Shown piece by piece: positions 14,700 through 28,329 of a stretch of 64,000 nucleotides of DNA (position 1 is the stretch's first letter; every line of letters starts with the position of its first letter). The notes beneath the pieces were generated by a model. It saw only the letters and a list, made by a program, of their open reading frames with translations. It was not told where the DNA came from and ran no database searches. Origin of the DNA: a plasmid; the sequence record NZ_CP022071.1, one strand, 5' to 3'. The position numbers and the translations under genes are program-made.

Positions 14700-14995
14700 C
14701 CGGATTCAGGAGCACTCTGTAAGGGGTAACACCCCTGGCAGCGCCCCCAGGGGTGTTACTTAAAAACAGGCACAGCGACGCTAGCAGCGCCCCTGATATA
14801 ATGCAATGTTTTTTATAAAAATAGTCAGTACTACCCCTGTATAGCGTCGTCATAGCGGTGCCGGCGACGTGCCTGCACCGCTATTTAATACATTAAAATA
14901 AATTAAATTACATTATTATGAACATAACTCACTGTTACTAAAAACAAATCAGAAAAATTTTAATTTTGCGTGGGGTGTGGTGCTTTTGGTGGTGA
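14700..14995. promoter_or_regulatory. oriT: oriT with the F-type nic site (gcgtggggtgt|ggtgcttt at 14968-14986) and upstream inverted repeats (14727-14759)
   Basis: Exact match to the canonical F nic motif TTTGCGTGGGGTGTGGTGCTTT. It lies between traM and gene X. There are 13-bp inverted repeats gtaacacccctgg/ccaggggtgttac. Confidence 0.8.
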
Positions 14996-15069
14996 GGACG
15001 GCAAATTTGTTGAGTATGGAGTTGGAGTGGGTTAAGTTATTACCGGATGACTACGCAAGAGGCAAATTA

Positions 15070-15540
15070 ATGTATAAATGGCTCCTGTCTGTCCTCCTGG
15101 TATTAATGAGCACGGTAGTCCATGCCGCTGACTGTTTTGATCTGGCCGGGAGAGACTATAAAATAGATCCGGATTTACTGCGGGCGATTTCATGGAAGGA
15201 ATCCCGTAACCGGGCTAATGCCGTCGGTATTAATCCGGTTACGGGATATGGCTCGGGGTTAATACAGGTTGACTCTCAGCACTTTAACGAACTGGCTCGT
15301 TATGGAATAAAACCGGAACAACTTGTCTCCGATCCCTGCCTGAATATTTACACCGGAGCTTATTATCTGGCAATCGCATTCAGAAAGTGGGGGGTATCCT
15401 GGACAGCAGTCGGAGCGTACAACGCCGGATTTAAAAAGACTCCCCTTCAGGATGCACGTCGTCTGGACTATGCGACTGATGTACACCGAATCTGGATCGC
15501 GATAAAACAAAGTAAAACCAGGCAGACTCCCGCCCGATGA
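15070..15540 (+). CDS. Gene X / orf169 lytic transglycosylase (SLT domain) with signal peptide
   Basis: [19 protein letters not shown]..., then the SLT motifs [16 protein letters not shown] and GLIQV. It occupies the first leading-region position after oriT. Confidence 0.85.
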
Positions 15541-15795
15541 TCCCCTTTTTGTATCCGGCAAGCAGAAGAAGGGATAATATTATCAACCGAAACCCATATA
15601 TTTTTTATGCCGCATAGCAGAATGGAATAAACACAGAAATGTAATACTGACTGCCCGGAATCCCGCGAAACGGGAACCCGTTATCATATCTTCTTCCACC
15701 CTGTCAGATCCGTTTTTATCGCTGGCACATAAATGACAGAAAACGATGAAGTCTGTTGATTAAAATGGGATGTTACAGACAATCTGACAATGTCC

Positions 15796-15850
15796 GGGAA
15801 GAATAACATAAGTAAAGCCCCGAAAAATTTTCGGGGCTTTACTTATGTTA
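15796..15850. repeat. Near-perfect ~52-bp palindrome (hairpin)
   Basis: aataacataagtaaagccccgaaaa|ttttcggggctttacttatgttatt. Confidence 0.6.
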
Positions 15851-16062
15851 TTATGACTTACATTCACGAAACTGTTCAGCAATCATCCACAGCGCCTTGT
15901 TTAACCGGATATCACCATTAATACCGGTAACTGCCCTGATCCGGGTGTTTTTTCCGGGGCATTCCTGCCGGGTAACCCACTCTTCATCATATTCTTCTGT
16001 ACACGCTGATATGTTGTCCACAGGTCATTTTGTTTATCTTCCCGACGACGTGGAGTAATTAT

Positions 16063-16407
16063 TTATTCAGGAGAAACAGGGATTTTATTTTCGTCCTCAT
16101 ATCTGACAGTCAGTGCCGCTTTACCAAACAGATATTGCTCATCCTGATTAAGTATCACTGACTTCATTGACTCCATATTTTCGGTGGCTTTATCGAAGAT
16201 CCCCATAACCTCATAATCCCCCTCAATCACCTGCCCAACAATATCTCCCTTGTGTGGCACACGTATTTCACCAAAATGATCCGCATACCAGTCCATTTGT
16301 ACAGATAAATCTGAACAGCCCGGGAACCATCTGATAACTTGACGAACCGTCATGAGAATTGAGCAAAATAATTTCCGGAACCTCTTTCCCATTAATCTGT
16401 CATTCAC
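16063..16407 (-). CDS. Leading-region hypothetical protein (downstream member of a coupled pair)
   Basis: 114-aa ORF whose start overlaps the stop of ORF 16400..16669 by 8 nt. Confidence 0.35.
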   Translation of the reverse strand: MNDRLMGKRFRKLFCSILMTVRQVIRWFPGCSDLSVQMDWYADHFGEIRVPHKGDIVGQVIEGDYEVMGIFDKATENMESMKSVILNQDEQYLFGKAALTVRYEDENKIPVSPE

Positions 16408-16669
16408 GACGAAAACGCAGCATATGTTTACTGTATTCCCGGCGACTTAAATCACGTACACGACTCTGGCAGGCAAAGAACGACTGAAAACCTTCCTCAC
16501 GTAACCTGTTGATGATATTAATGGTTGGAATATAAGTATAACGTTCGCTCCGGGATTCATGTTTGTCTCCGGAAAAAACTGAAGGCACAGTCTGCATTAA
16601 TTCAGCGTCAGCCAAAGGACTCTCACGACGAATGGAATTCTGTCTACCAAAACGGGAAGCGAGTCTCAT
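16400..16669 (-). CDS. Leading-region hypothetical protein (upstream member of a coupled pair)
   Basis: 89 aa, MRLASRFGRQNSIRRESPLADAELMQTVPSVF... Confidence 0.4.
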   Translation of the reverse strand: MRLASRFGRQNSIRRESPLADAELMQTVPSVFSGDKHESRSERYTYIPTINIINRLREEGFQSFFACQSRVRDLSRREYSKHMLRFRRE

Positions 16670-17178
16670 AACGTATTCCTTATATAATTAATGAAAAAAT
16701 TCTGAAGAAAAAGCAGTGACCGGAGACACCGCCATTTCCGTTAACACTCAAGTAACAAAAGCGGGTGTTATTCAACAACGCTCCCCTTTAATCCCCTCGG
16801 TGAAGCCGGTGATCCAGTCACGTACAGACCGGATAAAACCATACTGAATACCGTAATGATCTGCGGCTTCCTGACCATACGCGACACTCATGGCCGCACG
16901 ATCAGCAGCGGCTACCAGCTGGCTTTTCATTTTTTCCACCATCTTTCAGTAGATTCAAAGTTACGCATGATATCTCCTTTCGATAACGGGGCGGGGATAT
17001 TCCCCGCCATCCGGGTCACTTCCTGAGTTCAGTTCCGGCAAACTGCGCCATCAGGTGAAGCATATGTGCTATTTCATCCACTTTTTGCTGCAATGGCGGC
17101 GTTGCCACCGGGATGAGCCGGATTTGTACCTCCAGCTGATCCATCAGCCGGGCGGTCTGCGTTTCCAGACGGGCTTTA

Positions 17179-17916
17179 TCAGGGAAGTCGCCCGGGCCTC
17201 CGGTTCGTCAGCTTGTTGGGTACCTGCCAACGTTCGGCCTCGCGCACATATACCGGGTTTTCCCGGACGATGAACCAGATTTCATACATCACGTTGTACA
17301 GCGGCTCATCACTGTCGCGCAGCCAGTCCAGCGACGTCAGCGAGGTAAACCGCGTCCGCCACTGCCAGAACCCCTGCGCCAGCTCCCGCGCGTCAAACTC
17401 GTCAGCCCAGCGCGTATACCAGGCATTGACGGTTTCCGGCGACTGAAAGTTAAGCTCCGTCATGGCCTGCCCCAGCAGGTTCTGGCGCAGCAGCCAGGCA
17501 TGTTCCAGCGCTTTTTCCTCCCGGCGCATTTTGCGGTTAAAGGCGATTTTCTCACGCTGCATCCGGCGATCTGTGCGCGCGTGTATCACCTCCGGGAACA
17601 GTTCGGCCTGCACATCCACGGAGAGTGGTAGCGGGCAATACTCCCCGTGACTGGAGATGAGGCGATCCAGCGCCTCTTCCACCTGTTTCAGGCTGGTCAG
17701 CCGGTTCTTCGGCTCCCAGTTCAGACCGGGAATACGCTGTGCCACTGTCGTGTTAATCCGGCTGCTGCCGCTCAGCACGCGCAAAAAAGTACGCGCATGT
17801 GGCAGGGCGGGCAGACGTGCTCCACGGCGGCGGGATTCTTCCACCGTCAGAATGGCCTGTAATGCCGCCTGACGGGCTGGCTTCAGGGTAACCAGGGCGT
17901 GTGAAGAGTGGATCAT
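17179..17916 (-). CDS. psiA: PsiA (plasmid SOS inhibition protein A)
   Basis: 245 aa immediately downstream of psiB and overlapping its stop. Same size and position as F PsiA. Confidence 0.8.
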   Translation of the reverse strand: MIHSSHALVTLKPARQAALQAILTVEESRRRGARLPALPHARTFLRVLSGSSRINTTVAQRIPGLNWEPKNRLTSLKQVEEALDRLISSHGEYCPLPLSVDVQAELFPEVIHARTDRRMQREKIAFNRKMRREEKALEHAWLLRQNLLGQAMTELNFQSPETVNAWYTRWADEFDARELAQGFWQWRTRFTSLTSLDWLRDSDEPLYNVMYEIWFIVRENPVYVREAERWQVPNKLTNRRPGRLP

Positions 17917-18347
17917 GCTGCGCCCTCCATCGCCAGAACGCTGATGATGCTGGCCTGACTGTAACCATCGGCATCAAGGTGAGCCACCAGGCTGAGTGTA
18001 TGCGTGATAACCTCCGGCGACCAGGCTGGCAGCGTGCGGATAACAGAGAACGGGCGACCGCTGACCGGAATAAAGACCACCATCCAGGACGGGCTGATAT
18101 CCCCGGGACTGCATACCGCCAGGCTGAAATTGCCGCGGGATGGCGTGAAACGGATCTGCACCGGGAAAAAACCACCAAACTCACTGCGATATTCGCCGTT
18201 CATGTCCCAGCCTGCGGGACATGTCAGGTCACGCATCGCGGCGTGGGTCAGTTCACGGCGCAGGTCTTCGCCGCCGTCGCGCCAGTCTTCGAATTCCTGG
18301 GGGATCATTGTACTCAATACAGCGGGGGTAATAATGTTACGCATCAT
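17913..18347 (-). CDS. psiB: PsiB (plasmid SOS inhibition protein B)
   Basis: Contains the motifs RRELTHAAMRDL...NGEYRSEFGGFFPVQIRFTP...CSPGD, as in F PsiB. Confidence 0.9.
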   Translation of the reverse strand: MMRNIITPAVLSTMIPQEFEDWRDGGEDLRRELTHAAMRDLTCPAGWDMNGEYRSEFGGFFPVQIRFTPSRGNFSLAVCSPGDISPSWMVVFIPVSGRPFSVIRTLPAWSPEVITHTLSLVAHLDADGYSQASIISVLAMEGAA

Positions 18348-18386
18348 TTTCTCCTTGCTGCCGCCCCCGAAGGGCGGCCTCCGTTA

Positions 18387-20384
18387 TCAGGCTGCATCGG
18401 GCAGGGTGTGGTGGCTGTCTGCATCAGCACTGCCGTTTTCGGTATCAGATACGTCGTTTTCTGCATCAGGGGCGCGCATCCAGACAGGCACCCAACGGTT
18501 GTCACGCATTTTGTCCTCTGCCAGTTCAGCCGCATCACCCTTCTTCATCTTCTCCGCATCCCGCGCCGCGCCTGTCAGTCCGGCCTCATTCAGCGCGGCG
18601 ATGATTTGCGGTTTTTTAAGGCCAGTGAAGAAATCGGCCTTCGTCGGTTGCCACCAGTCGCGCAGATGGAAAGCGAGCGCGATTTCCAGCTTATCGAGCG
18701 GACTGCGGGTGGTGCCTCCGGCGCCGCGCATCTGCATACCGTCAAGACTGCATGCGGTGCAGAAACTGAGCAGGGCGGTAAGGTCTTTGGCGCTGAGGGT
18801 GAAAAAGGTGGTGAAGTCCTGTGTCCAGCCCTCCGGTAGCAACGTTTCAAGACGTTTTCCCTCCTGCGACAGCGTCACAAACGCAACACCGCTCTCGCCG
18901 GGCGGCGCATCCTTTGTCAGGGAGTAATGCTTACAGTTCAGGCTGATTTGAGCGGGTCGGTTATACGCGCCGCTGCTGAACACGTTCAGACACAGCGTCC
19001 ATGCCAGAAGCGCCAGGGATTTTTCCGGCTGCTGCATCAGTGCCGCCTGGACCGACAATGTCCGTTCTGCACACATTCTGGTCAGCAGGGGAACACTGAT
19101 TTCGTCCACAGGCTCCGGCTGGCGCTCATATACCGGAACCTGATCGGGTTCATCTTCCGTTTCAGACTGCTCACGCAGGCTCACCCCGCGCTGGACACAG
19201 ATTTCACCGTGACGCCATGACACCACCACGCCGGACTGTGCGCGCATTTCCAGCGTCCATGCCCGGAGTTGTGCCGCGCATTCGATGGCCTCTATCTCTG
19301 ACTCCATCGTGTCGGTTTCATCGCTGGCGGTCTGGTTTTCGTCGTACAGTTCCTGCAACTCGTCCAGGCGCTGCTGTTCCTGCTCCGTGTAAACCGCGTC
19401 AGGCTCATCCTGAATACGGTACACTTCGGTATCCTCACCATAGCGGCTGACAGGCTCCATCCGTCCCGCGCACCATGCCCAGCCCTCGGCCTCTTTCAGG
19501 CACTCCGCCACCCACTGAAGTTTTTCCAGCAGGGCCGTATCCAGCGCCAGTTTGTCCACAAAACCGCCCTGTTCGTCGCTGAACAGGTCTGCGCGGATTT
19601 CATCGCCGGAGAAAGCTTTTTCACCGACAAACGTATATTTGCTGTTGTTGAGGGTGGAAACCTGACTGTCGGTGATCAAATTACGGATCACGCGCACTTC
19701 CGGTTTATTGTTCCAGCCCTCTCGACACGCCGCCTCGTACACCTGCACCTGACGGTCGGGATTGTCCTCCAGCGCCAGCGCCTGACAGTGCTCCGTGGTG
19801 ATTTTGTCCGCAGCCAGCGCTTCCAGGATAACCGGAGCCAGCCCCGCGAGTTTCAGCATCCGCTGTACGTGACGGGGCGAATAGCCCAGCAGATCGCCAG
19901 TCTGTGCAGGAGTTTTGCCTTCCGCTGCCATCGCGCGGAATCCCGCAATTTGTTCGGCAGGGTGCATTTCCAGATGCTGCCCGTTCTCGGTCAGTGAAGC
20001 GGCGGTCGCCAGATTATCCGGCACAACCTTCACGCGGACAGGCCAGTCCGGGTGGATCGTGTTCTCAGTGGCCAACAGATTCATCGCCGCCAGACGGCGA
20101 CCGCCAGCGGCAACACCGTACAGGCCGTCAGGGAGGGCGTGAACAACCAGATTCTGGAGCAGTCCAATCCCTTTAATAGAGTCCGCCAGTTCGCGGACGC
20201 TCTCTGTGGAATACGGCACGATACGCACGTTCTGTGGGGATTTGACCAGTGCGGACAGCGGTACGTGTTGTTCTTCGGTCTGCGCCAGCACCGCCGACAA
20301 TACGGTGTTACTGGCACTGGCGGCGTTTTTCGCCTTACGGCTGGTTTTTACTGCGGATTTTGCATTAGAATTGGTAACTGACAT
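18387..20384 (-). CDS. Large ParB-like nuclease domain protein of leading regions (F YubM-like)
   Basis: 665 aa. The N-terminal ParB/Srx fold region (LQNLVVHALPDGLYGVAAGGRRL) is followed by a long acidic C-terminal region. Conserved position between ssb and psiB. Confidence 0.85.
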   Translation of the reverse strand: MSVTNSNAKSAVKTSRKAKNAASASNTVLSAVLAQTEEQHVPLSALVKSPQNVRIVPYSTESVRELADSIKGIGLLQNLVVHALPDGLYGVAAGGRRLAAMNLLATENTIHPDWPVRVKVVPDNLATAASLTENGQHLEMHPAEQIAGFRAMAAEGKTPAQTGDLLGYSPRHVQRMLKLAGLAPVILEALAADKITTEHCQALALEDNPDRQVQVYEAACREGWNNKPEVRVIRNLITDSQVSTLNNSKYTFVGEKAFSGDEIRADLFSDEQGGFVDKLALDTALLEKLQWVAECLKEAEGWAWCAGRMEPVSRYGEDTEVYRIQDEPDAVYTEQEQQRLDELQELYDENQTASDETDTMESEIEAIECAAQLRAWTLEMRAQSGVVVSWRHGEICVQRGVSLREQSETEDEPDQVPVYERQPEPVDEISVPLLTRMCAERTLSVQAALMQQPEKSLALLAWTLCLNVFSSGAYNRPAQISLNCKHYSLTKDAPPGESGVAFVTLSQEGKRLETLLPEGWTQDFTTFFTLSAKDLTALLSFCTACSLDGMQMRGAGGTTRSPLDKLEIALAFHLRDWWQPTKADFFTGLKKPQIIAALNEAGLTGAARDAEKMKKGDAAELAEDKMRDNRWVPVWMRAPDAENDVSDTENGSADADSHHTLPDAA

Positions 20385-20452
20385 TATTGATACTCCTTCA
20401 TGATATTAATAATTGTCTGCCGGACGTGTTCCCGTCCGGCACCTCTTACGGC

Positions 20453-20695
20453 TTACTGCGTTTTACGGATACCGTGGCTTTCGATACAGCGGTTGAGCCA
20501 GTACTCGCCGCCCGGTTCAAAATTCCAGCCCCGCCAGACCATTTCGCCGTCCTTACGCACAACCAAGCGAAGGTGCGTCCCCTGATCGTCTTCAATGGCG
20601 ACATTCTGATACTGTGCTGCCACCGCTTCGGCCTGTTCGTGGGTGAACGTGCCATCAGGCAGGGATTTCAGTGGGCTCATGATGTTGTCTGTCAT
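20453..20695 (-). CDS. Conserved small leading-region protein
   Basis: ~80-aa ORF between ssb and the ParB-like gene. Likely start is [12 protein letters not shown]. Confidence 0.5.
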
Positions 20696-20749
20696 CGTGT
20701 TCTCCTGGATAAGCCCCGTCAGACGGGGCATCAGTGAAAATTTACCGAG

Positions 20750-21268
20750 TCAAAAGGGAATATCATCGTCGAAGTCATACGCCGGATCGGGTTGCGCTGG
20801 CGGCTGCTGCGGTGCTGCTGCGTTTTTCCCTTTTGCTGCATTTCCCGCCCCTTTTACCGCTTTGCCTTCTCCCTTTGCCGCCGTAGGTGGGGTCTGAGGC
20901 TCCTGCTGTGGCTGGCTGTTGTGGCGACCGAGCATCTGCATGGTGCCGCCCACGTTAACGATCACTTCGGTGGTGTATTTGTCCTGACCGGACTGATCGG
21001 TCCATTTGCGGGTGCGTAACTGGCCCTCGATGTAGACCTGAGCACCTTTACGCAGATATTCACTGGCAATTTCAGCGAGCTTGCCAAACACGACAACACG
21101 GTGCCATTCGGTGTGTTCGCGCATCTCCCCGTCCTGCCTGACACGCCATGTTTCTGACGTGGCGAGGGTAAGATTTGCCACCGCGCCCCCGTTGGGCATG
21201 TAACGTACTTCCGGGTCCTGCCCGATATGACCGACCAGAATAACTTTGTTTACGCCACGTGCTGCCAT
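20750..21268 (-). CDS. ssb: Plasmid single-stranded DNA-binding protein
   Basis: OB-fold N-terminus [39 protein letters not shown]...W, with the acidic tail DFDDDIPF. Confidence 0.95.
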
Positions 21269-21897
21269 GATAAATCTCCTTAATGCGTTGTTTTGACTTT
21301 AAAAACCATCACCCGTTGAGTTTCGGGAGCCGCGGTTTTGACGTTTTGCGGGGACCTGCTGTTCTGTTCCCTCTGGTACTGCCATCACCCGTTTGAGAAC
21401 CTTCGCCGCAAGGGGCATCACTGCCACGGCCCGACGCACCTGTCCGGGGCAGAACGCAAAAGTTTTTGCCGGCCTTTTACGGCAAAAAGTTTTGTGGGTT
21501 GTTCATTTCACCTTGGACAGCCAGTGCGGCGGGTTGTGGCTGTATCAGCCCCCGGCGACAGGGACTTAAACGGGTAACGGCACCAGAAGCGGAGATGAGC
21601 AGGAACCCGCCGCAACGTCGGGACGCGGCACGCGAAACGGCGTTGCGCCTTACAGCCCGGCAGCCTTACCGCCGGGGTGCGAAAAGCGCAGGAAACGGCG
21701 CGCCAGGGGCGGCGTGACCGGAACGGTCGCAGCAAGCCTGCCGTTGACGTTGCGACAGTGGGATGGAAACCCGCTGCCCCGAAGGGGCCGGGCAGAGACA
21801 GCGCAGCTGGCTCGGTGCGCAGCATGACAGTCCCGGTTCCCGTCAGGGAAGTCGCCCGGCGTCAGCGAAATCTGTCAGGGAATATCAGCAGCAGAAT

Positions 21898-21969
21898 GAA
21901 CAGGAACAGGAACAGGAACAGGAACAGGAACAGGAACAGGAACAGGAACAGGAACAGGAACAGGAACAG
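21898..21969. repeat. Tandem hexanucleotide microsatellite (GAACAG)x12
   Basis: Twelve perfect head-to-tail units. The overlapping ORFs translate to (NR)n or (EQ)n, which I take as artefacts. Confidence 0.95.
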
Positions 21970-21998
21970 GCAGCGTATTATCACCGGCAGGAAGAAAA

Positions 21999-23493: not shown

Positions 23494-23911
23494 AAAACCT
23501 CCGTAATCACATATTCCGCGACACCGGGCGGTGCCGTGCATCCATACCAGTCGGGCGATCAATCGTGGATGCAAGGGCGCAAGGGAAGCCGCAGCCTGAC
23601 GCGCACGGAAGACGGGAGCTGAAGGGTGAGACCGTGAAACCTGAACGGTCGAACGACCGGAAGATCGCGGCTGACGTGAAGGAAGGACCGGGTGACCGCC
23701 GCGTGCACTTTACCCTTGTATCCACGACAGCCCGACTACGATGGATGCACGGCACAGCCCGCACACGACACAGGACTGTCAGAGTGGAAAACCACAAGGC
23801 GACGGCCGGCAGGCCTGAGCCGGGTGAATGCGGAGCCGAAAAGGCGACATCCTTTTGCCTGTTTTGCCTGTCGTCCCCGGCATCGTCGCAGTCGCCGGCT
23901 GAAAAACTGAA

Positions 23912-25293: not shown

Positions 25294-25515
25294 TCAGTCT
25301 TTAAAACACTCATTGAGCATCAGGCTTTCGTTGTACGCTTCATCCAGCAGGGTGTTGATACGCCGCAGACTCTGCCCGGCCAGTCGTTCAGTAAGTCCGT
25401 GACGCTGCCAGTGATAACGCTCTTCCAGCACTTTCAGGGTGGCGCGCAGGTCGCACATGCTGTTGGCCAGCGCCGCCACTTCTGCGCGGAGTTTTTCGTG
25501 TCCGGAATAGTTCAT
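25294..25515 (-). CDS. Small protein translationally coupled to the methyltransferase
   Basis: 73 aa. Its ATG shares a base with the methyltransferase stop (TAATG on the minus strand). Confidence 0.5.
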   Translation of the reverse strand: MNYSGHEKLRAEVAALANSMCDLRATLKVLEERYHWQRHGLTERLAGQSLRRINTLLDEAYNESLMLNECFKD

Positions 25516-26195
25516 TACGCGGCCTCCGGATAAAAGACGTCGTTGGCGGCCGGGCGTTGCATGGCGCGCTGTACGGCTGTCAGGCGCTCAATCCCGGCTT
25601 TGTGGTACTGCTCCATCAGCTCGATACCGATATATCTGCGCCCCGCCTGTAACGCGGCAACGCAGGTGGAGGCGGAGCCGGCAAACGGGTCGAGAACAAT
25701 GGCGTTCGTGTGTGTGAAAGACTCAATCAGCGGTTGCAGGCTGGTAACGGGCTTTTCCGTCGGGTGGTGGCGATTGCCGGAATACTTCCAGCCGAGGACA
25801 TCCGGCAGCGGGTTCTGTGGCAGGGCCGGACGGCCTTTCGCCAGCACGTAAGCGCATTCATGGCGGTAGCCGACATACGCGGATTTTGACGAGTAGTTTT
25901 TGGTGAATACCAGGTGTCCGACCACGCTGAAACCGGCACTTTTCCAGGCCGCCATGAAACGGTCCACGCGGTTCCAGCCGTAGAAACTGACCAGCAGCGC
26001 ATCTTTTTTGAGTACGCGGTACATCTGGTTACAGGCGGGTTGCAGCCACTCGTCGGTTCTGTCACCGGCAATACTGCGGCCGGAACGGTCACGGAATCCG
26101 ACAAGGTAAGGCGGGTCGGTCAGAATGAAATCGACGGCGCGCTCCGGAAAGCCGGACATAATATCGACACAGTTCCCCAGGATTAAACGGGACAT
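25515..26195 (-). CDS. Orphan DNA methyltransferase (N6-adenine / N4-cytosine class, DPPY motif)
   Basis: Motifs FILTDPPYLVGF and DPFAGSASTCVAA. No cognate restriction endonuclease is adjacent. This is the typical leading-region anti-restriction methylase. Confidence 0.9.
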   Translation of the reverse strand: MSRLILGNCVDIMSGFPERAVDFILTDPPYLVGFRDRSGRSIAGDRTDEWLQPACNQMYRVLKKDALLVSFYGWNRVDRFMAAWKSAGFSVVGHLVFTKNYSSKSAYVGYRHECAYVLAKGRPALPQNPLPDVLGWKYSGNRHHPTEKPVTSLQPLIESFTHTNAIVLDPFAGSASTCVAALQAGRRYIGIELMEQYHKAGIERLTAVQRAMQRPAANDVFYPEAA

Positions 26196-26275
26196 AGAGA
26201 TTCCTCGCGGTTACAGGAGGCACCGGGAGGGCGTCCCTGTGACGCCCGTTCCCCGCTGCCTGTGGGCTGTTCACC

Positions 26276-26367
26276 GCGTCCGGTAACGGGTCAGGCCGAC
26301 CGTGGAATAACGAGCCGACAGTCCTCACCGTCGGTGAGTTTATGCCGCGAAAGCGGCTTGAAGGGCG
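26276..26367. repeat. Copy 1 of a ~92-bp direct repeat in a GC-rich structured island (Frpo-like candidate)
   Basis: gcgtccggtaacgggtca..gccgaccgtggaataacgagccgaca...ttatgccgcgaaagcggcttgaagggcg recurs at 27468-27560. It contains a GNRA-loop hairpin gccgc-gaaa-gcggc (26344-26357). Confidence 0.8.
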
Positions 26368-26576
26368 TTCATCAGAAGGCGAGTGCCGGGCGCATAATAG
26401 CGACAGCGCCCGGCAGGAGCAGAAAAATCGCCCGTCCCGTGCCCGGCCGGACGCGGGATACTGACCACAGGCAGCGTTGCTCCCGCGCCGCCGGCGCTGG
26501 CGCCGAAAAAAGAGGAGCTGCGCGACATCATTATTCATTCAGGAAGTACCAGGCAGACGTACTGCCCGGCAGATTA

Positions 26577-26933
26577 TCAGCGGGTGATATCCCGCCAGTC
26601 ATTCCCCCACTCATCGCGCAGTACCGGCGCATCCGTTGAGCCGGTCACTGTCCACGCATCGAGGAACTTCAGACCACGCAGGATACTGTTTTCCACGTCA
26701 TCGAGCAGAATGATGCTGTTAAACCAGACCACGCCTGTTTCATATTCCCACCGATGCCGGTCATCCTCGCGTTTCAACGATGGCCACCAGGTGCGCCCCA
26801 TTTGCAGAACACCCGCTTCGGCATGCTCCAGGTCAGTCGCGGAAACCAGGTAATGCACCATCATTTCAGTGCCATTGACGTCGACACTCAGGCCAACAAG
26901 CCAGGTATCATTAATGTTTGAATTATTATCCAC
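26577..26933 (-). CDS. Acidic Trp-rich hypothetical protein (downstream member of a coupled pair)
   Basis: 118 aa. It overlaps the upstream ORF by 8 nt. Confidence 0.5.
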   Translation of the reverse strand: MDNNSNINDTWLVGLSVDVNGTEMMVHYLVSATDLEHAEAGVLQMGRTWWPSLKREDDRHRWEYETGVVWFNSIILLDDVENSILRGLKFLDAWTVTGSTDAPVLRDEWGNDWRDITR

Positions 26934-27396
26934 CGCGCTTCACCTCATCGATTGCCCATTGCAGATGGCTCCAGTTGAACCCGTCATTCGCATCATGGCA
27001 GTGCTGTGCCAGCTCCATCGCCGCATCGATATCGTCTTCCGTGAGCGAACTGTCCAGCGCCAGAAAATCACTGGCCAGCCAGAACGTACCGCAGCACAGC
27101 GCATCATCAGGAAACCGGGAAAGACGCTGTTTAAACGCAGCGACTGTCATATTGCGGGACAGCGTGATACAGGCCGGAAAAACACTGTCTGCCACATCGT
27201 TCCAGCTCCACTCATCACTGTCTGGTACTGGTCGCTCCACGGTTTCCGTGGTCACACCAGGCAGACGGGATAAACGTTCCAGAATATCCCCCAGGTACAG
27301 CTTCTCGCCGCTGCCGTCTTCACTGGACAGATAATGTCCGTTGATATAAAGCGCAAACTCGCCATTTTCCAGGTCGATACAGGTCACTCTGAACAT
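26926..27396 (-). CDS. Acidic hypothetical protein (first gene after Frpo-like repeat copy 2)
   Basis: 156 aa, rich in D/E. It lies directly 3' of the repeated structured element on the minus strand. Confidence 0.55.
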   Translation of the reverse strand: MFRVTCIDLENGEFALYINGHYLSSEDGSGEKLYLGDILERLSRLPGVTTETVERPVPDSDEWSWNDVADSVFPACITLSRNMTVAAFKQRLSRFPDDALCCGTFWLASDFLALDSSLTEDDIDAAMELAQHCHDANDGFNWSHLQWAIDEVKRGG

Positions 27397-27467
27397 AAGA
27401 TTTTCCTCAACATCCGGCAGGAGGCATCACCGCGATACCGTTCCCTGCCGCACGCTGCCTGTTCGTC

Positions 27468-27560
27468 GCGTCCGGTAACGGGTCAACGCCGACCGTGGAA
27501 TAACGAGCCGACAATTCTCATCGTCGGCGAGCTTATGCCGCGAAAGCGGCTTGAAGGGCG
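27468..27560. repeat. Copy 2 of the ~92-bp direct repeat (Frpo-like candidate)
   Basis: ~90% identical to 26276-26367, in the same orientation, with the same GNRA hairpin. Confidence 0.8.
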
Positions 27561-27871
27561 CCCTTAAACTGGCGAGGGTATGGAGTACAATCACAACGAC
27601 GCCAGCGCCCGTCCCGTGACAGGCCGGACGCGGCACACTGGCAGCGGGTGGCAGTCAGCATCAGGTGTGCAGGAATGGCCGGGGTGACAACAGGAGCTGA
27701 AGGGAAACACCAGAGGAGGACAGATGACATACCAACAGTTCTGCGTTGCTCCTCCACAGGGTTATTAACTGATTCTGTGGATAACCTGACATCTGTTTTT
27801 CCAGGCAGAACAGTTATCTGAGGGGAAACAGTAAAATTTCACTTGCAGGACAGAAAATATCTTAAATAATG

Positions 27872-27887
27872 CTGTATATAAAAACAG
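27872..27887. promoter_or_regulatory. LexA box (SOS operator) for samAB
   Basis: CTGTATATAAAAACAG is a perfect CTGT-N8-ACAG, 20 bp upstream of the samA ATG. Confidence 0.85.
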
Positions 27888-27906: not shown

Positions 27907-28329
27907 ATGTTACTGCTTGTAGCACCCGAACAGGAGCCGGTACAGTCCACTGCCCCGCTGTTCACCGAACGTTGCCCGGCGGGGTTTCCGTCGCCGGCCG
28001 CCGATTACACAGAGGAGGAACTGGATCTGAATGCCTACTGTATACGGCGTCCGGCTGCAACATTCTTCGTCAGGGCTATCGGGGATTCGATGAAAGAAAT
28101 GGGTCTGCATTCCGGCGATTTAATGGTTGTCGACAAAGCTGAGAAACCCATGCAGGGGGATATTGTCATCGCGGAAACAGATGGCGAGTTCACCGTTAAG
28201 CGCCTGCAGTTGAAGCCCCGTATCGCCCTGCTGCCGATTAATCCGGCCTACCCCACGCTTTATCCGGAAGAACTGCAGATTTTCGGGGTGGTGACGGCTT
28301 TTATACACAAAACCCGGAGCACAGACTGA
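27907..28329 (+). CDS. samA: UmuD/MucA homologue (S24 LexA-like peptidase)
   Basis: CPAGFPSPAADY...GDSM...GDLMVVDKA... matches UmuD. Confidence 0.9.
   Translation: MLLLVAPEQEPVQSTAPLFTERCPAGFPSPAADYTEEELDLNAYCIRRPAATFFVRAIGDSMKEMGLHSGDLMVVDKAEKPMQGDIVIAETDGEFTVKRLQLKPRIALLPINPAYPTLYPEELQIFGVVTAFIHKTRSTD

Follow-up and report, generated by a model that had tools for sequence, protein, structure and literature searches.

Two direct repeats in the leading region of a pSLT-type Salmonella plasmid as probable copies of the class 3 single-stranded DNA promoter

When a resistance or virulence plasmid arrives in a new cell, single-stranded DNA (ssDNA) promoters govern the first minutes of gene expression, and this early phase decides whether restriction and the SOS response are evaded. 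The 64,000-nt window analysed here (the whole stretch of DNA under study) is pSLT-type IncF (IncFII/FIB) Salmonella plasmid sequence, and its leading region contains two similar units, 26276–26367 and 27468–27560, each lying ahead of a different minus-strand operon. What are these repeats, and could they act as promoters while the incoming plasmid is still single-stranded, as an earlier note on this DNA had proposed?

The repeats and the transferred strand

Alignment of the 92- and 93-nt units gave 86/93 identical positions (92.5%) with one 1-nt indel, in keeping with the identity of ~90% and shared orientation that the note had reported. These units form the core of larger homologous elements (26239–26483 and 27432–27660, + strand), about 231–245 nt long for copy 1 and about 217–229 nt for copy 2, which are 79% identical over their full extent when gaps are excluded. 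In a repeat search, the direct-repeat families D3, D2 and D6 jointly span ~26246–26476 and ~27438–27654 at a start-to-start spacing of 1192–1193 positions, and each element is flanked by a 30–31-nt long-range inverted repeat, I2 (26254–83/26447–76) in copy 1 and I3 (27445–75/27624–54) in copy 2. The description of GC-rich, non-coding islands directly upstream of minus-strand operons was also accurate: GC content is 0.64 and 0.62 for copies 1 and 2, compared with 0.53 for the window, and the minus-strand start codons of the methylase and the first acidic ORF lie 59 and 49 nt away, respectively. The genes and the transfer origin used to orient the elements are as follows.

25515–26195, − strand: first operon gene behind copy 1, an N6_N4 DNA methylase and M.EcoGIX-family orthologue (Pfam PF01555, E = 1.5e-37)
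26926–27396, − strand: orfA, first gene behind copy 2, an orphan acidic ORF of 156 aa, pI 4.3
26577–26933, − strand: orfB, second gene behind copy 2, an orphan acidic ORF of 118 aa, pI 4.4
14970–14986, + strand: oriT nic-site sequence GTGGGGTGT/GGTGCTTT, exact match, with traM on one side and the SLT transglycosylase gene on the other

The letters at 14970–14986 are the F nic sequence, and because this exact match is on the + strand, the + strand is the transferred strand and the template of minus-strand genes. Every gene of the leading region is encoded on the minus strand and points at oriT. The + strand would enter the recipient 5′-first, starting at nic (about 14979), with copy 1 expected to arrive ~11.3 kb and copy 2 ~12.5 kb after nic.

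Homology to known ssDNA promoters

Copy 1 is 83.0% (F) and 83.8% (pESBL) identical to the region directly upstream of the methylase gene, and copy 2 is 74–75% identical to the class-3 regions of the same two plasmids. According to Wen et al. (NAR 2025, PMC12672017), the class 3 ssDNA promoter (ssp3) is the promoter that drives M.EcoGIX in pESBL; it is induced early in conjugation as measured by RNA-seq, has a start site mapped by 5′ RACE, and is conserved in F. A 2026 preprint (10.64898/2026.01.09.698686) used the F copy of ssp3 as a portable ssDNA promoter, substituting it for ssp2 in F and describing it as equivalent in strength. A covariance model (R1) returned exactly two + strand matches in the window, at 286 bits for copy 1 and 218 bits for copy 2; on the reverse strand the scores were only 39 and 22 bits.

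We consider it very probable that both repeats are copies of ssp3 that fold and are transcribed on entry. Within this analysis the basis for this assignment is homology, strand, position, a conserved and covarying fold, and selection on the transferred strand. Early induction, the 5′-RACE start and portability were established experimentally on orthologues of copy 1 in pESBL and F, and would extend to the present elements by analogy. Copy 1 is an orthologue of the published element, with the same position, strand and fold upstream of an orthologous methylase; copy 2 is a paralogue that has every core motif, and is a second predicted ssp3, ahead of two acidic orphan genes. What distinguishes this plasmid is that there are two copies, and that copy 2 is followed by orfA and orfB and no M.EcoGIX-family methylase, with P3, the branch hairpin of the fold described below, shortened by a 16-nt deletion. 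The proposal that each leading-region operon has its own folded ssDNA promoter on the transferred strand is supported by class-3 orthology, the covariance model, fold and position.

The motif gccgc-gaaa-gcggc is invariant in 28/28 enterobacterial copies, and the repeats are not a product of chance, since the element is found at 80–90% identity in at least 5000 plasmids. Methylase orthologues that are 85–100% identical are likewise found in at least 5000 plasmids, and at ~25 enterobacterial loci the element is on the non-coding strand 40–45 nt upstream of the methylase orthologue. The repeats are a real element of a kind already published, the class having been described in 2025, and our finding therefore confirms existing work and breaks no new ground; what the comparative data add is a covariation-supported model of a three-way junction, a test of selection on the transferred strand, and an extension to Betaproteobacteria.

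The suggestion that the repeats are related to Frpo did not hold up. By blastn against the window (word size 7, E ≤ 0.01), F ssiD/Frpo1-2 and ColIb-P9 ssi1-3 matched only 21306–21652, and Frpo′4 together with class-2 sequences matched only 23518–23854, in neither case a repeat. All Frpo, ssi, Frpo′ and Frpo* sequences of Samuel et al. (Supplementary Table 2) were unmatched in both repeats, and we rejected the reading of the repeats as Frpo homologues. An Rfam scan of 15–35 kb (E ≤ 1) gave no gathering-level match and returned sub-threshold noise; this noise includes a 21-bit “cow-rumen-1” match within copy 2. The two matched islands belong to other classes, and are listed here with the repeats.

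26239–26483, + strand: predicted ssp3 (class-3 ssDNA promoter), copy 1; covariance model 286 bits, identity to F and pESBL, fold z = −5.5, covariation
27432–27660, + strand: predicted ssp3 (class-3 ssDNA promoter), copy 2; covariance model 218 bits, 79% identity to copy 1, fold z = −4.4
21306–21652, + strand: Frpo2/ssp1b orthologue ahead of ssb, a class-1 ssDNA promoter; aligns with F ssiD across 357 nt at 80% identity (E = 3e-81)
23518–23854, + strand: class-2 ssDNA promoter (ssp2) upstream of klcA/ardB; 81% identity to Frpo′4 of Samuel et al.

Structured islands had also been noted upstream of ssb and klcA, and both are real: the ssb island folds as a single long hairpin (z = −9.4), and the klcA island (z = −6.8) aligns with the regions upstream of F yfgB, pESBL klcA and pESBL ardA. 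As the former is class 1 and the latter class 2, the idea of several modular ssDNA promoters is correct, and classes 1, 2 and 3 are all present in the window. Class 1 (ssp1a/b) comprises Frpo/ssiD and ColIb-P9 ssi1-3 (Masai and Arai 1997; Couturier et al. 2023, PMC9849209). Its members resemble the repeats in being GC-rich transferred-strand folds upstream of leading-region genes, and their ssDNA-only activity is what would be expected of the repeats too; Frpo, however, forms a single extended hairpin that is close to perfect and ends in an A/T-rich apex, whereas the repeats are predicted to fold as a three-way junction and have no detectable sequence homology to it. Class 2 (ssp2, at klcA/ardB and ardA; Frpo′4 of Samuel et al. 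2024) has the same genomic role and strand and is also found in the window, but is unrelated to the repeats in sequence.

A three-way junction and the strand under selection

We analysed the fold comparatively in 28 enterobacterial copies, with slid pairings and 500 shuffles as controls. The covariation supports a predicted three-way junction of helices P1, P2 and P3 rather than the single extended stem-loop that the earlier note had expected. In the proposed structure, a long stem, P1, encloses two hairpins: P2, with the invariant motifs, and P3, a branch of variable length.

26254–26283, + strand: copy 1 P1 5′ arm (inverted repeat I2); helices 1–3 covary; proposed template for initiation
26447–26476, + strand: copy 1 P1 3′ arm, with a −10-like GATACT (26457–26462) in a mismatched bubble
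26291–26361, + strand: copy 1 P2 hairpin, which holds two invariant motifs, CGTGGAATA and TATGCCGCGAAAGCGGCTTGA, and TTGA at 26358–26361
26363–26433, + strand: copy 1 P3 branch hairpin, variable in length, apical loop CATAAT (26393–26398)
26436–26437, + strand: copy 1 CC, proposed to supply the last two bases of a composite −35 under coaxial stacking of P1 and P2
27445–27475, + strand: copy 2 P1 5′ arm (inverted repeat I3)
27624–27654, + strand: copy 2 P1 3′ arm, with a −10-like CACACT (27634–27639)

Pairing was retained in 92% of pair cells, compared with 31–43% in the slid controls, and 17 pairs had double-sided changes, compared with 1–5 in the slid controls and 0/500 shuffles. Four compensatory pairs fall in the apical stem of P3, a branch whose length ranges from 42 to 80 nt across clades, and P1 of copy 2 has five compensatory changes relative to copy 1. 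This pattern bears on the reading of the element as a small-protein gene whose duplication produced the repeat. A “hypothetical protein” CDS is annotated in F (53784–54089) and pESBL (54394–54705), and many plasmid matches carry the same label; nevertheless, homologues differ within the element by indels of 1, 2, 3 and 16 nt, variation is concentrated at compensatory stem positions, and the best-conserved blocks are structural motifs and not a reading frame, such that we give a coding origin almost no credence.

The + strand is more stable than its complement in every flagged window, with DNA fold z-scores of −5.5 (copy 1) and −4.4 (copy 2), and pairings on the + strand include 110 G·T cells and 7 A·C cells; selection therefore acts on the transferred strand. 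One may postulate a scenario in which the structure instead acts in RNA, as a 5′ UTR, riboregulator or terminator/insulator transcribed from a conventional upstream promoter. The elements do lie between operons, and folding of the minus strand likewise surpasses that of shuffled sequences (z = −4.7). In an mRNA, however, the 110 G·T cells would become A·C mismatches, with only 7 in the reverse case, and the covariance model scores 286 bits on the + strand versus 39 on the other. The same 15–35 kb have no Rfam match at gathering level, and a linear scan of the islands gave no sigma-70 consensus above shuffle expectation and no intrinsic terminator beyond chance. This scenario was already disfavoured, and we regard it as very improbable.

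Of the hairpin gccgc-gaaa-gcggc that had been pointed out in each repeat, the motif is present and invariant, yet its extended form competes with a covarying pairing of P2. The 3′ half of the extended GCCGC-GAAA-GCGGC hairpin covaries instead with the 5′ base of P2; this base covaries between Enterobacterales and Burkholderiales, pairing as GCCG/CGGC in enterics and GGG/CCC in Burkholderiales. Because the competing pairing covaries between clades, the extended GNRA hairpin is probably not the functional fold, and we set it aside; the minimal GCGAAAGC is the only part of it able to form in all clades. That P2 is so deeply invariant at the nucleotide level points to recognition by some additional factor.

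A rival interpretation takes the elements to be first and foremost single-strand initiation (ssi) sites, at which RNA polymerase, primase or the PriA primosome would be recruited by the fold to prime complementary-strand synthesis, with gene expression secondary. The mini-hairpin d(GCGAAAGC) is unusually stable and is known from the origins of ssDNA phages, and the motif TTATGCCGCGAAAGCGGCTTGAAGG resembles the hairpin of F ssiE. Early conversion events in vivo begin at ssp1 promoters, and Frpo (class 1) has both roles, as relayed in summaries of Masai and Arai (1997). Priming, however, has been demonstrated for ssp1 only. The likeness to F ssiE (D90180) is confined to a hairpin motif of ~29 nt, TTATGCC(C)GC(A)AAAGCGGC(A)T(G)GAAGG, with no extended homology, on which account we rejected the repeats as ssiE homologues; ssiE is within the SLT transglycosylase coding sequence beside oriT and not upstream of an operon, and its BLAST match in the window (15643–15679) is away from the repeats. 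The strict placement 40–60 nt upstream of a start codon also fits a promoter better. A primary ssi role is therefore unlikely in our assessment, while by analogy with Frpo an ssi role and promoter function could exist side by side.

Per 300 nt, copy 1 folds at −91.1 kcal/mol and copy 2 at −75.0 kcal/mol; copy 2 is the weakest fold and is borderline to the threshold for ssDNA folds (below −75 kcal/mol) that Wen et al. used for mining. Folds of such stability raise the question of whether the elements, instead of being promoters, hold up synthesis of the complementary strand as structural roadblocks, as ssp2 in F is also a replication roadblock, resolved by UvrD. The 2026 preprint (10.64898/2026.01.09.698686), however, chose ssp3 for its “no roadblock activity”, and conversion intermediates without a stall at F ssp3 have already been reported; we thus consider this explanation very improbable.

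Proposed initiation and the genes served

Under the favoured interpretation of the repeats as ssp3, each ~230-nt element would fold on itself into the three-way junction before the complementary strand is synthesised, with the double-stranded parts of the fold imitating a sigma-70 promoter. Host RNA polymerase would start within the fold, use the P1 5′ arm as template and run to lower coordinates, into the methylase operon from copy 1 and into orfA–orfB from copy 2. Once the complementary strand is made, the fold would be lost and the promoter switched off, producing a brief burst of expression (“zygotic induction”).

The −35/−10 pair can be obtained only by assembly across the junction. As the 5′ strand passes between P1 and P2 without a linker, we infer that these helices stack coaxially; the TTGA that closes P2 and the CC that opens the P1 3′ arm would then form a composite −35 (TTGACC), and 17–19 nt further on a mismatched bubble would hold the −10-like hexamer GAnnnT. 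Such a geometry, a composite TTGA/CC across the junction with a mismatched GAnnnT −10, is our own modelling, and would place start sites on the minus strand near 26261 (copy 1) and 27453 (copy 2). The arrangement TTGA/CC with an 18–19-nt spacer and [G/C]A[C/T]ACT was present in 24/25 enterobacterial rows parsed from alignment A5, the exception being L014 (Edwardsiella), and independent MFE folds of Burkholderiales elements gave TTGA/CC, a 17-nt spacer and GAnnGT with the A unpaired in 7/8 cases. Positions A2, A4 and T6 of the copy 1 −10-like hexamer are invariant in 28 sequences.

This interpretation must be made cautiously. The proposed −10 hexamers share no more with the consensus than A2 and T6, give or take one further position, and sigma region 4 might be impeded by a branch located within the −35 hexamer. 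The enterobacterial junction register is ambiguous, as three CCCG repeats permit a spacer of 13 or 19 nt, and the small GNRA hairpin is preferred over the long P2 in several enterobacterial MFE folds. One may also consider that a conserved second −10-like hexamer in the P3 loop, TAnAnT, could be the real −10. Paired with a contiguous TTGAAG −35, it would have spacings of 13, 16 and 29–32 nt across clades, and we judged this arrangement less likely.

The junction-assembled −35 geometry proposed for class 3 has not been described for Frpo. The promoter-plus-methylase module spans Enterobacterales plasmids to elements of Achromobacter, Bordetella and Paraburkholderia, which is evidence that class 3 reaches Betaproteobacteria. 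Taken together, these observations may be read as a class-3 promoter with a junction-assembled −35, a dispensable P3 and a pre-melted GAnnnT −10, belonging to an ancient promoter–methylase module that became a portable cassette and was duplicated, capturing orfA and orfB; we advance this joint reading tentatively, and would sooner expect it to fail in some part than to hold as a whole.

An anti-defence role had been suggested for the acidic two-gene operon, and this we could not support. Searches of orfA and orfB against Pfam, NCBIfam, PHROGs, PADLOC, PDB sequences and homologues gave nothing significant, nor did a Foldseek search of the AlphaFold2 model (pLDDT 78) against PDB. With the two repeats assigned, the early-expression map of this Salmonella plasmid would be complete: ssp1 for ssb/psiB, ssp2 for klcA, ssp3 for the methylase, and a second, predicted ssp3 for the two acidic proteins. 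Copy 2 makes orfA and orfB candidates for a part in early establishment, and orfB is kept together with orfA in L005 and L051.

Class 3 promoter copies on the transferred strand

The two same-orientation repeats of ~90% identity that the earlier note had described at 26276–26367 and 27468–27560 align at 86 of 93 positions (92.5%) with one 1-nt indel, and the homologous element exceeds this unit, reaching ~231 nt in copy 1 and 217 nt in copy 2 at 79% identity excluding gaps. A repeat search recovered adjoining direct-repeat families D3, D2 and D6, spaced by 1192–1193 nt and covering ~26246–26476 and 27438–27654. The reported setting was also borne out: both copies lie in GC-rich intergenic islands (GC 0.64 and 0.62, respectively, vs 0.53 for the window) located 5′ of minus-strand genes, 59 nt (copy 1) and 49 nt (copy 2) from the start codon. 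Each copy is bracketed by a long-range inverted repeat:

26254–83 / 26447–76, inverted repeat of 30–31 nt around copy 1
27445–75 / 27624–54, inverted repeat of 30–31 nt around copy 2

Salmonella enterica plasmids of the pSLT-type IncFII/FIB group are nearly identical to the window. In one annotated plasmid of this type the tra operon is followed by traM, an SLT transglycosylase gene and the leading region, which contains psiA, psiB, a parB-like gene, ssb, a klcA-type antirestriction gene and the methylase gene and is flanked by umuDC-like samAB and parAB. An exact GTGGGGTGT|GGTGCTTT occurs on the + strand at 14970–14986; this is the sequence of the F nic region as carried by the strand that is transferred. 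The + strand is thus the one that enters the recipient, 5′-first and in the direction of increasing coordinates, and every minus-strand leading gene has it as template. Both repeats are on this strand. Just past copy 2, a consensus LexA box (CTGTATATAAAAACAG, 27872–27887) lies 20 nt upstream of a samA/umuD-like ORF (27907–28329, +) and marks the outer edge of the leading-region island, a position consistent with the oriT-to-umuDC island boundaries of Samuel et al. 2024.

Using RNA-seq of transconjugants after donor removal, Wen et al. (NAR 2025, PMC12672017) identified six early-induced pESBL operons, mapped their start sites by 5′ RACE, and distinguished three classes among the ssDNA folds upstream of them: class 1 (Frpo/ssi), class 2 (upstream of klcA and ardA) and class 3 (upstream of the methyltransferase M.EcoGIX), the latter two being conserved in F. 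The names ssp1a/b, ssp2 and ssp3 come from a 2026 preprint (10.64898/2026.01.09.698686), in which ssp3, an ssDNA promoter equal in strength to ssp2, substitutes for it; a replication roadblock, another role that might be considered for ssp3, is reported there to be absent. Over the core, copy 1 is 83.0% and 83.8% identical to the regions upstream of the methylase genes of F and pESBL, and copy 2 is 74–75% identical to both. On the basis of this homology the repeats are two copies of ssp3, and the reading of them as ssDNA promoters was essentially right, with corrections to class and fold. All three known ssDNA promoter classes are present in the window:

21306–21652, class 1 (Frpo2/ssp1b), upstream of ssb; 80% over 357 nt to F ssiD/Frpo (E = 3e-81), same orientation
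23518–23854, class 2 (ssp2), upstream of klcA; 81% to 'Frpo'4'
26239–26483 (+), class 3 (ssp3) copy 1, upstream of the methylase gene (25515–26195, −); class from F/pESBL homology
27432–27660 (+), class 3 (ssp3) copy 2, upstream of orfA–orfB (26926–27396 and 26577–26933, −); class from F/pESBL homology

These assignments agree by homology with the suggestion of several modular ssDNA promoters, including the ssb and klcA islands; the latter also aligns closely with regions upstream of F yfgB, pESBL klcA and pESBL ardA. Alignment to F Frpo/ssiD, as the earlier note had proposed, matched the ssb island and neither repeat, and none of the Frpo, ssi, Frpo' and Frpo* sequences that Samuel et al. 2024 list in their Supplementary Table 2 matched either copy. 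Neither a folding-energy scan nor BLAST revealed a Frpo1/ssp1a-like element in the stretch from oriT to psiA (15000–21000), whereas F carries one upstream of ygeA/ygeB; there appears to be only one class-1 promoter in this plasmid. A tandem (GGAACA)n array of ~17 units (21879–21982) lies just distal to it.

This kind of element is already published (December 2025), and copy 1 is therefore a new member and copy 2 a duplicated copy of a known kind. We consider modestly new the covariation-backed junction fold, the test of which strand is under selection, the hypothesis of a promoter that spans the junction, the finding that the class reaches into Burkholderiales, and the linkage of a second ssp3 with two orphan acidic genes.

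Covariation and the strand under selection

The + strand of copy 1 folds at −96.6 kcal/mol (z = −5.5 vs shuffled controls), and that of copy 2 has z = −4.4. When the folding scan was run with the cutoff of Wen et al. (−75 kcal/mol), it flagged both copies and the ssb island and nothing else, and the + strand was more stable than its complement in every flagged window. A covariance model built from both copies together with F and pESBL was searched against 55 methylase-orthologue loci; it matched the non-coding strand 40–45 nt upstream of the methylase gene in ~25 enterobacterial loci and found second upstream copies in five loci, with much lower scores on the reverse strand (e.g., 39 vs 286 bits).

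We then evaluated an explicit three-way junction, consisting of a long outer stem (P1), a hairpin with invariant motifs (P2) and a branch of variable length (P3), on an alignment of 28 sequences. Pair cells were paired in 92% of cases vs 31–43% with partners slid, and 17 pairs had double-sided changes vs 1–5 in slid controls, a number reached in 0 of 500 shuffles; covarying pairs were found in the outer P1 stem (7 of 12), the inner P1 stem (5 of 10) and the apical P3 stem (4 of 9). Wherever the + strand has a G·T pair, its complement and the mRNA would have an A·C mismatch. Across the structure we counted 110 G·T cells against 7 A·C cells, and selection therefore acts on the transferred DNA strand; this is the comparison of strands that the earlier note had called for. 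A structure acting at the RNA level is contradicted by this asymmetry and by the strand-specific model scores.

A further rival reading, that the region is protein-coding, comes from RefSeq, where the class-3 promoter is covered by a CDS labelled 'hypothetical protein' in both F (locus L002, 3785–4090; NC_002483 53784–54089) and pESBL (locus L004, 4395–4706). Among homologues, indels of 1, 2, 3 and 16 nt break the frame and stem changes are compensatory; both contradict this reading and suggest that the CDS is a mis-annotated non-coding structured element.

The GCCGC-GAAA-GCGGC sequence that had been singled out as a GNRA hairpin is present and invariant in Enterobacterales, but P2 covariation speaks against the extended hairpin as the fold. 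In Paraburkholderia, Achromobacter and Bordetella, the elements that precede methylase orthologues retain CGTGGAATA, TTATGCCGCGAAAGC and CTTGAA, while GCGGC is replaced by CCC, matched by GCCG to GGG at the 5′ base of P2; this covariation favors the long P2 pairing. Only a minimal GCGAAAGC hairpin could form in all clades. The Burkholderiales elements fold independently into the same three-way junction (z = −6.5 and −6.1). They lie directly upstream of the methylase orthologues on the minus strand (~1235–1471 in loci L037–L042 and L045–L048, from Achromobacter, Bordetella petrii and Paraburkholderia), and we found no mention of them in the ssDNA-promoter literature cited here. One of these loci (L038) also encodes another N6 methylase, a DUF6900 protein and a ClpX-type zinc-finger protein.

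A proposed promoter spanning the junction

How the orthologues work is established in outline, and by analogy the ssDNA fold here would mimic duplex promoter DNA, host RNA polymerase would initiate within it, and conversion of the strand to duplex would shut the promoter off. For the promoter elements we propose the following placement. P1 and P2 may stack coaxially because they share a continuous 5′ strand without a linker; the opposite strand of the stack would then read ...CTTGA|CCCGT..., providing TTGACC (a 5/6 match to consensus) as a composite −35, which the P3 branch would split at the A|C step of TTGA|CC. Downstream, a mismatched bubble in the P1 3′ arm contains the hexamer [G/C]A[C/T]ACT, in which A2, A4 and T6 are invariant. 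In 24 of 25 parsed enterobacterial rows the spacer is 18–19 nt on the hexamer strand and ~15 nt on the template, the sole exception being Edwardsiella (L014), and seven of eight unconstrained minimum free energy folds from Burkholderiales have precisely 17 nt of spacer between TTGA|CC and a GAnnGT whose A is unpaired. The template would lie on the P1 5′ arm, with minus-strand starts predicted near 26261 for copy 1 (66-nt leader) and near 27453 for copy 2 (57-nt leader). The predicted methylase leader would include a small conserved hairpin, GGGCGTC-CCTGT-GACGCCC (26225–26253), that separates the base of copy 1 from the Shine-Dalgarno sequence and is shared with F and pESBL, and not kept in copy 2.

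This geometry should be interpreted cautiously: the match of the proposed hexamer to a −10 is weak, a branch within the −35 might impede sigma region 4, and the junction register is ambiguous in enteric sequences. A second conserved hexamer, TAnAnT, occurs in the P3 loop at 13–32 nt from TTGAAG. According to a 2026 NAR paper, a hairpin-based search ahead of this F gene cluster failed to find a probable promoter, in agreement with a fold more complex than one hairpin. The elements may also have a priming (ssi) role alongside promoter function, by analogy with Frpo, which combines the two, although among ssDNA promoters priming has been demonstrated for ssp1 only.

The second copy and its acidic genes

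The genes behind copy 2 encode small acidic proteins (orfA, 156 aa, pI 4.3; orfB, 118 aa, pI 4.4) with no match in Pfam, NCBIfam, PADLOC or PDB sequences. The orfA family is an orphan of ~56 clusters, all annotated 'hypothetical' and restricted to enterobacterial plasmids, and a Foldseek search of PDB with an AlphaFold2 model of orfA (pLDDT 78) gave nothing significant. The designation of the two genes as an anti-defence operon, a reasonable guess from context, is not supported by evidence; we consider both genes candidate early-establishment factors because they are positioned behind an ssDNA promoter. The order ssp3–orfA–orfB–ssp3–methylase is also seen in a Citrobacter locus and, in part, in Apirhabdus. 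Among the matches listed, ~15% of plasmid records have more than one place with the element, and ~214 plasmids have a variant that shares 95% identity or more with copy 2.
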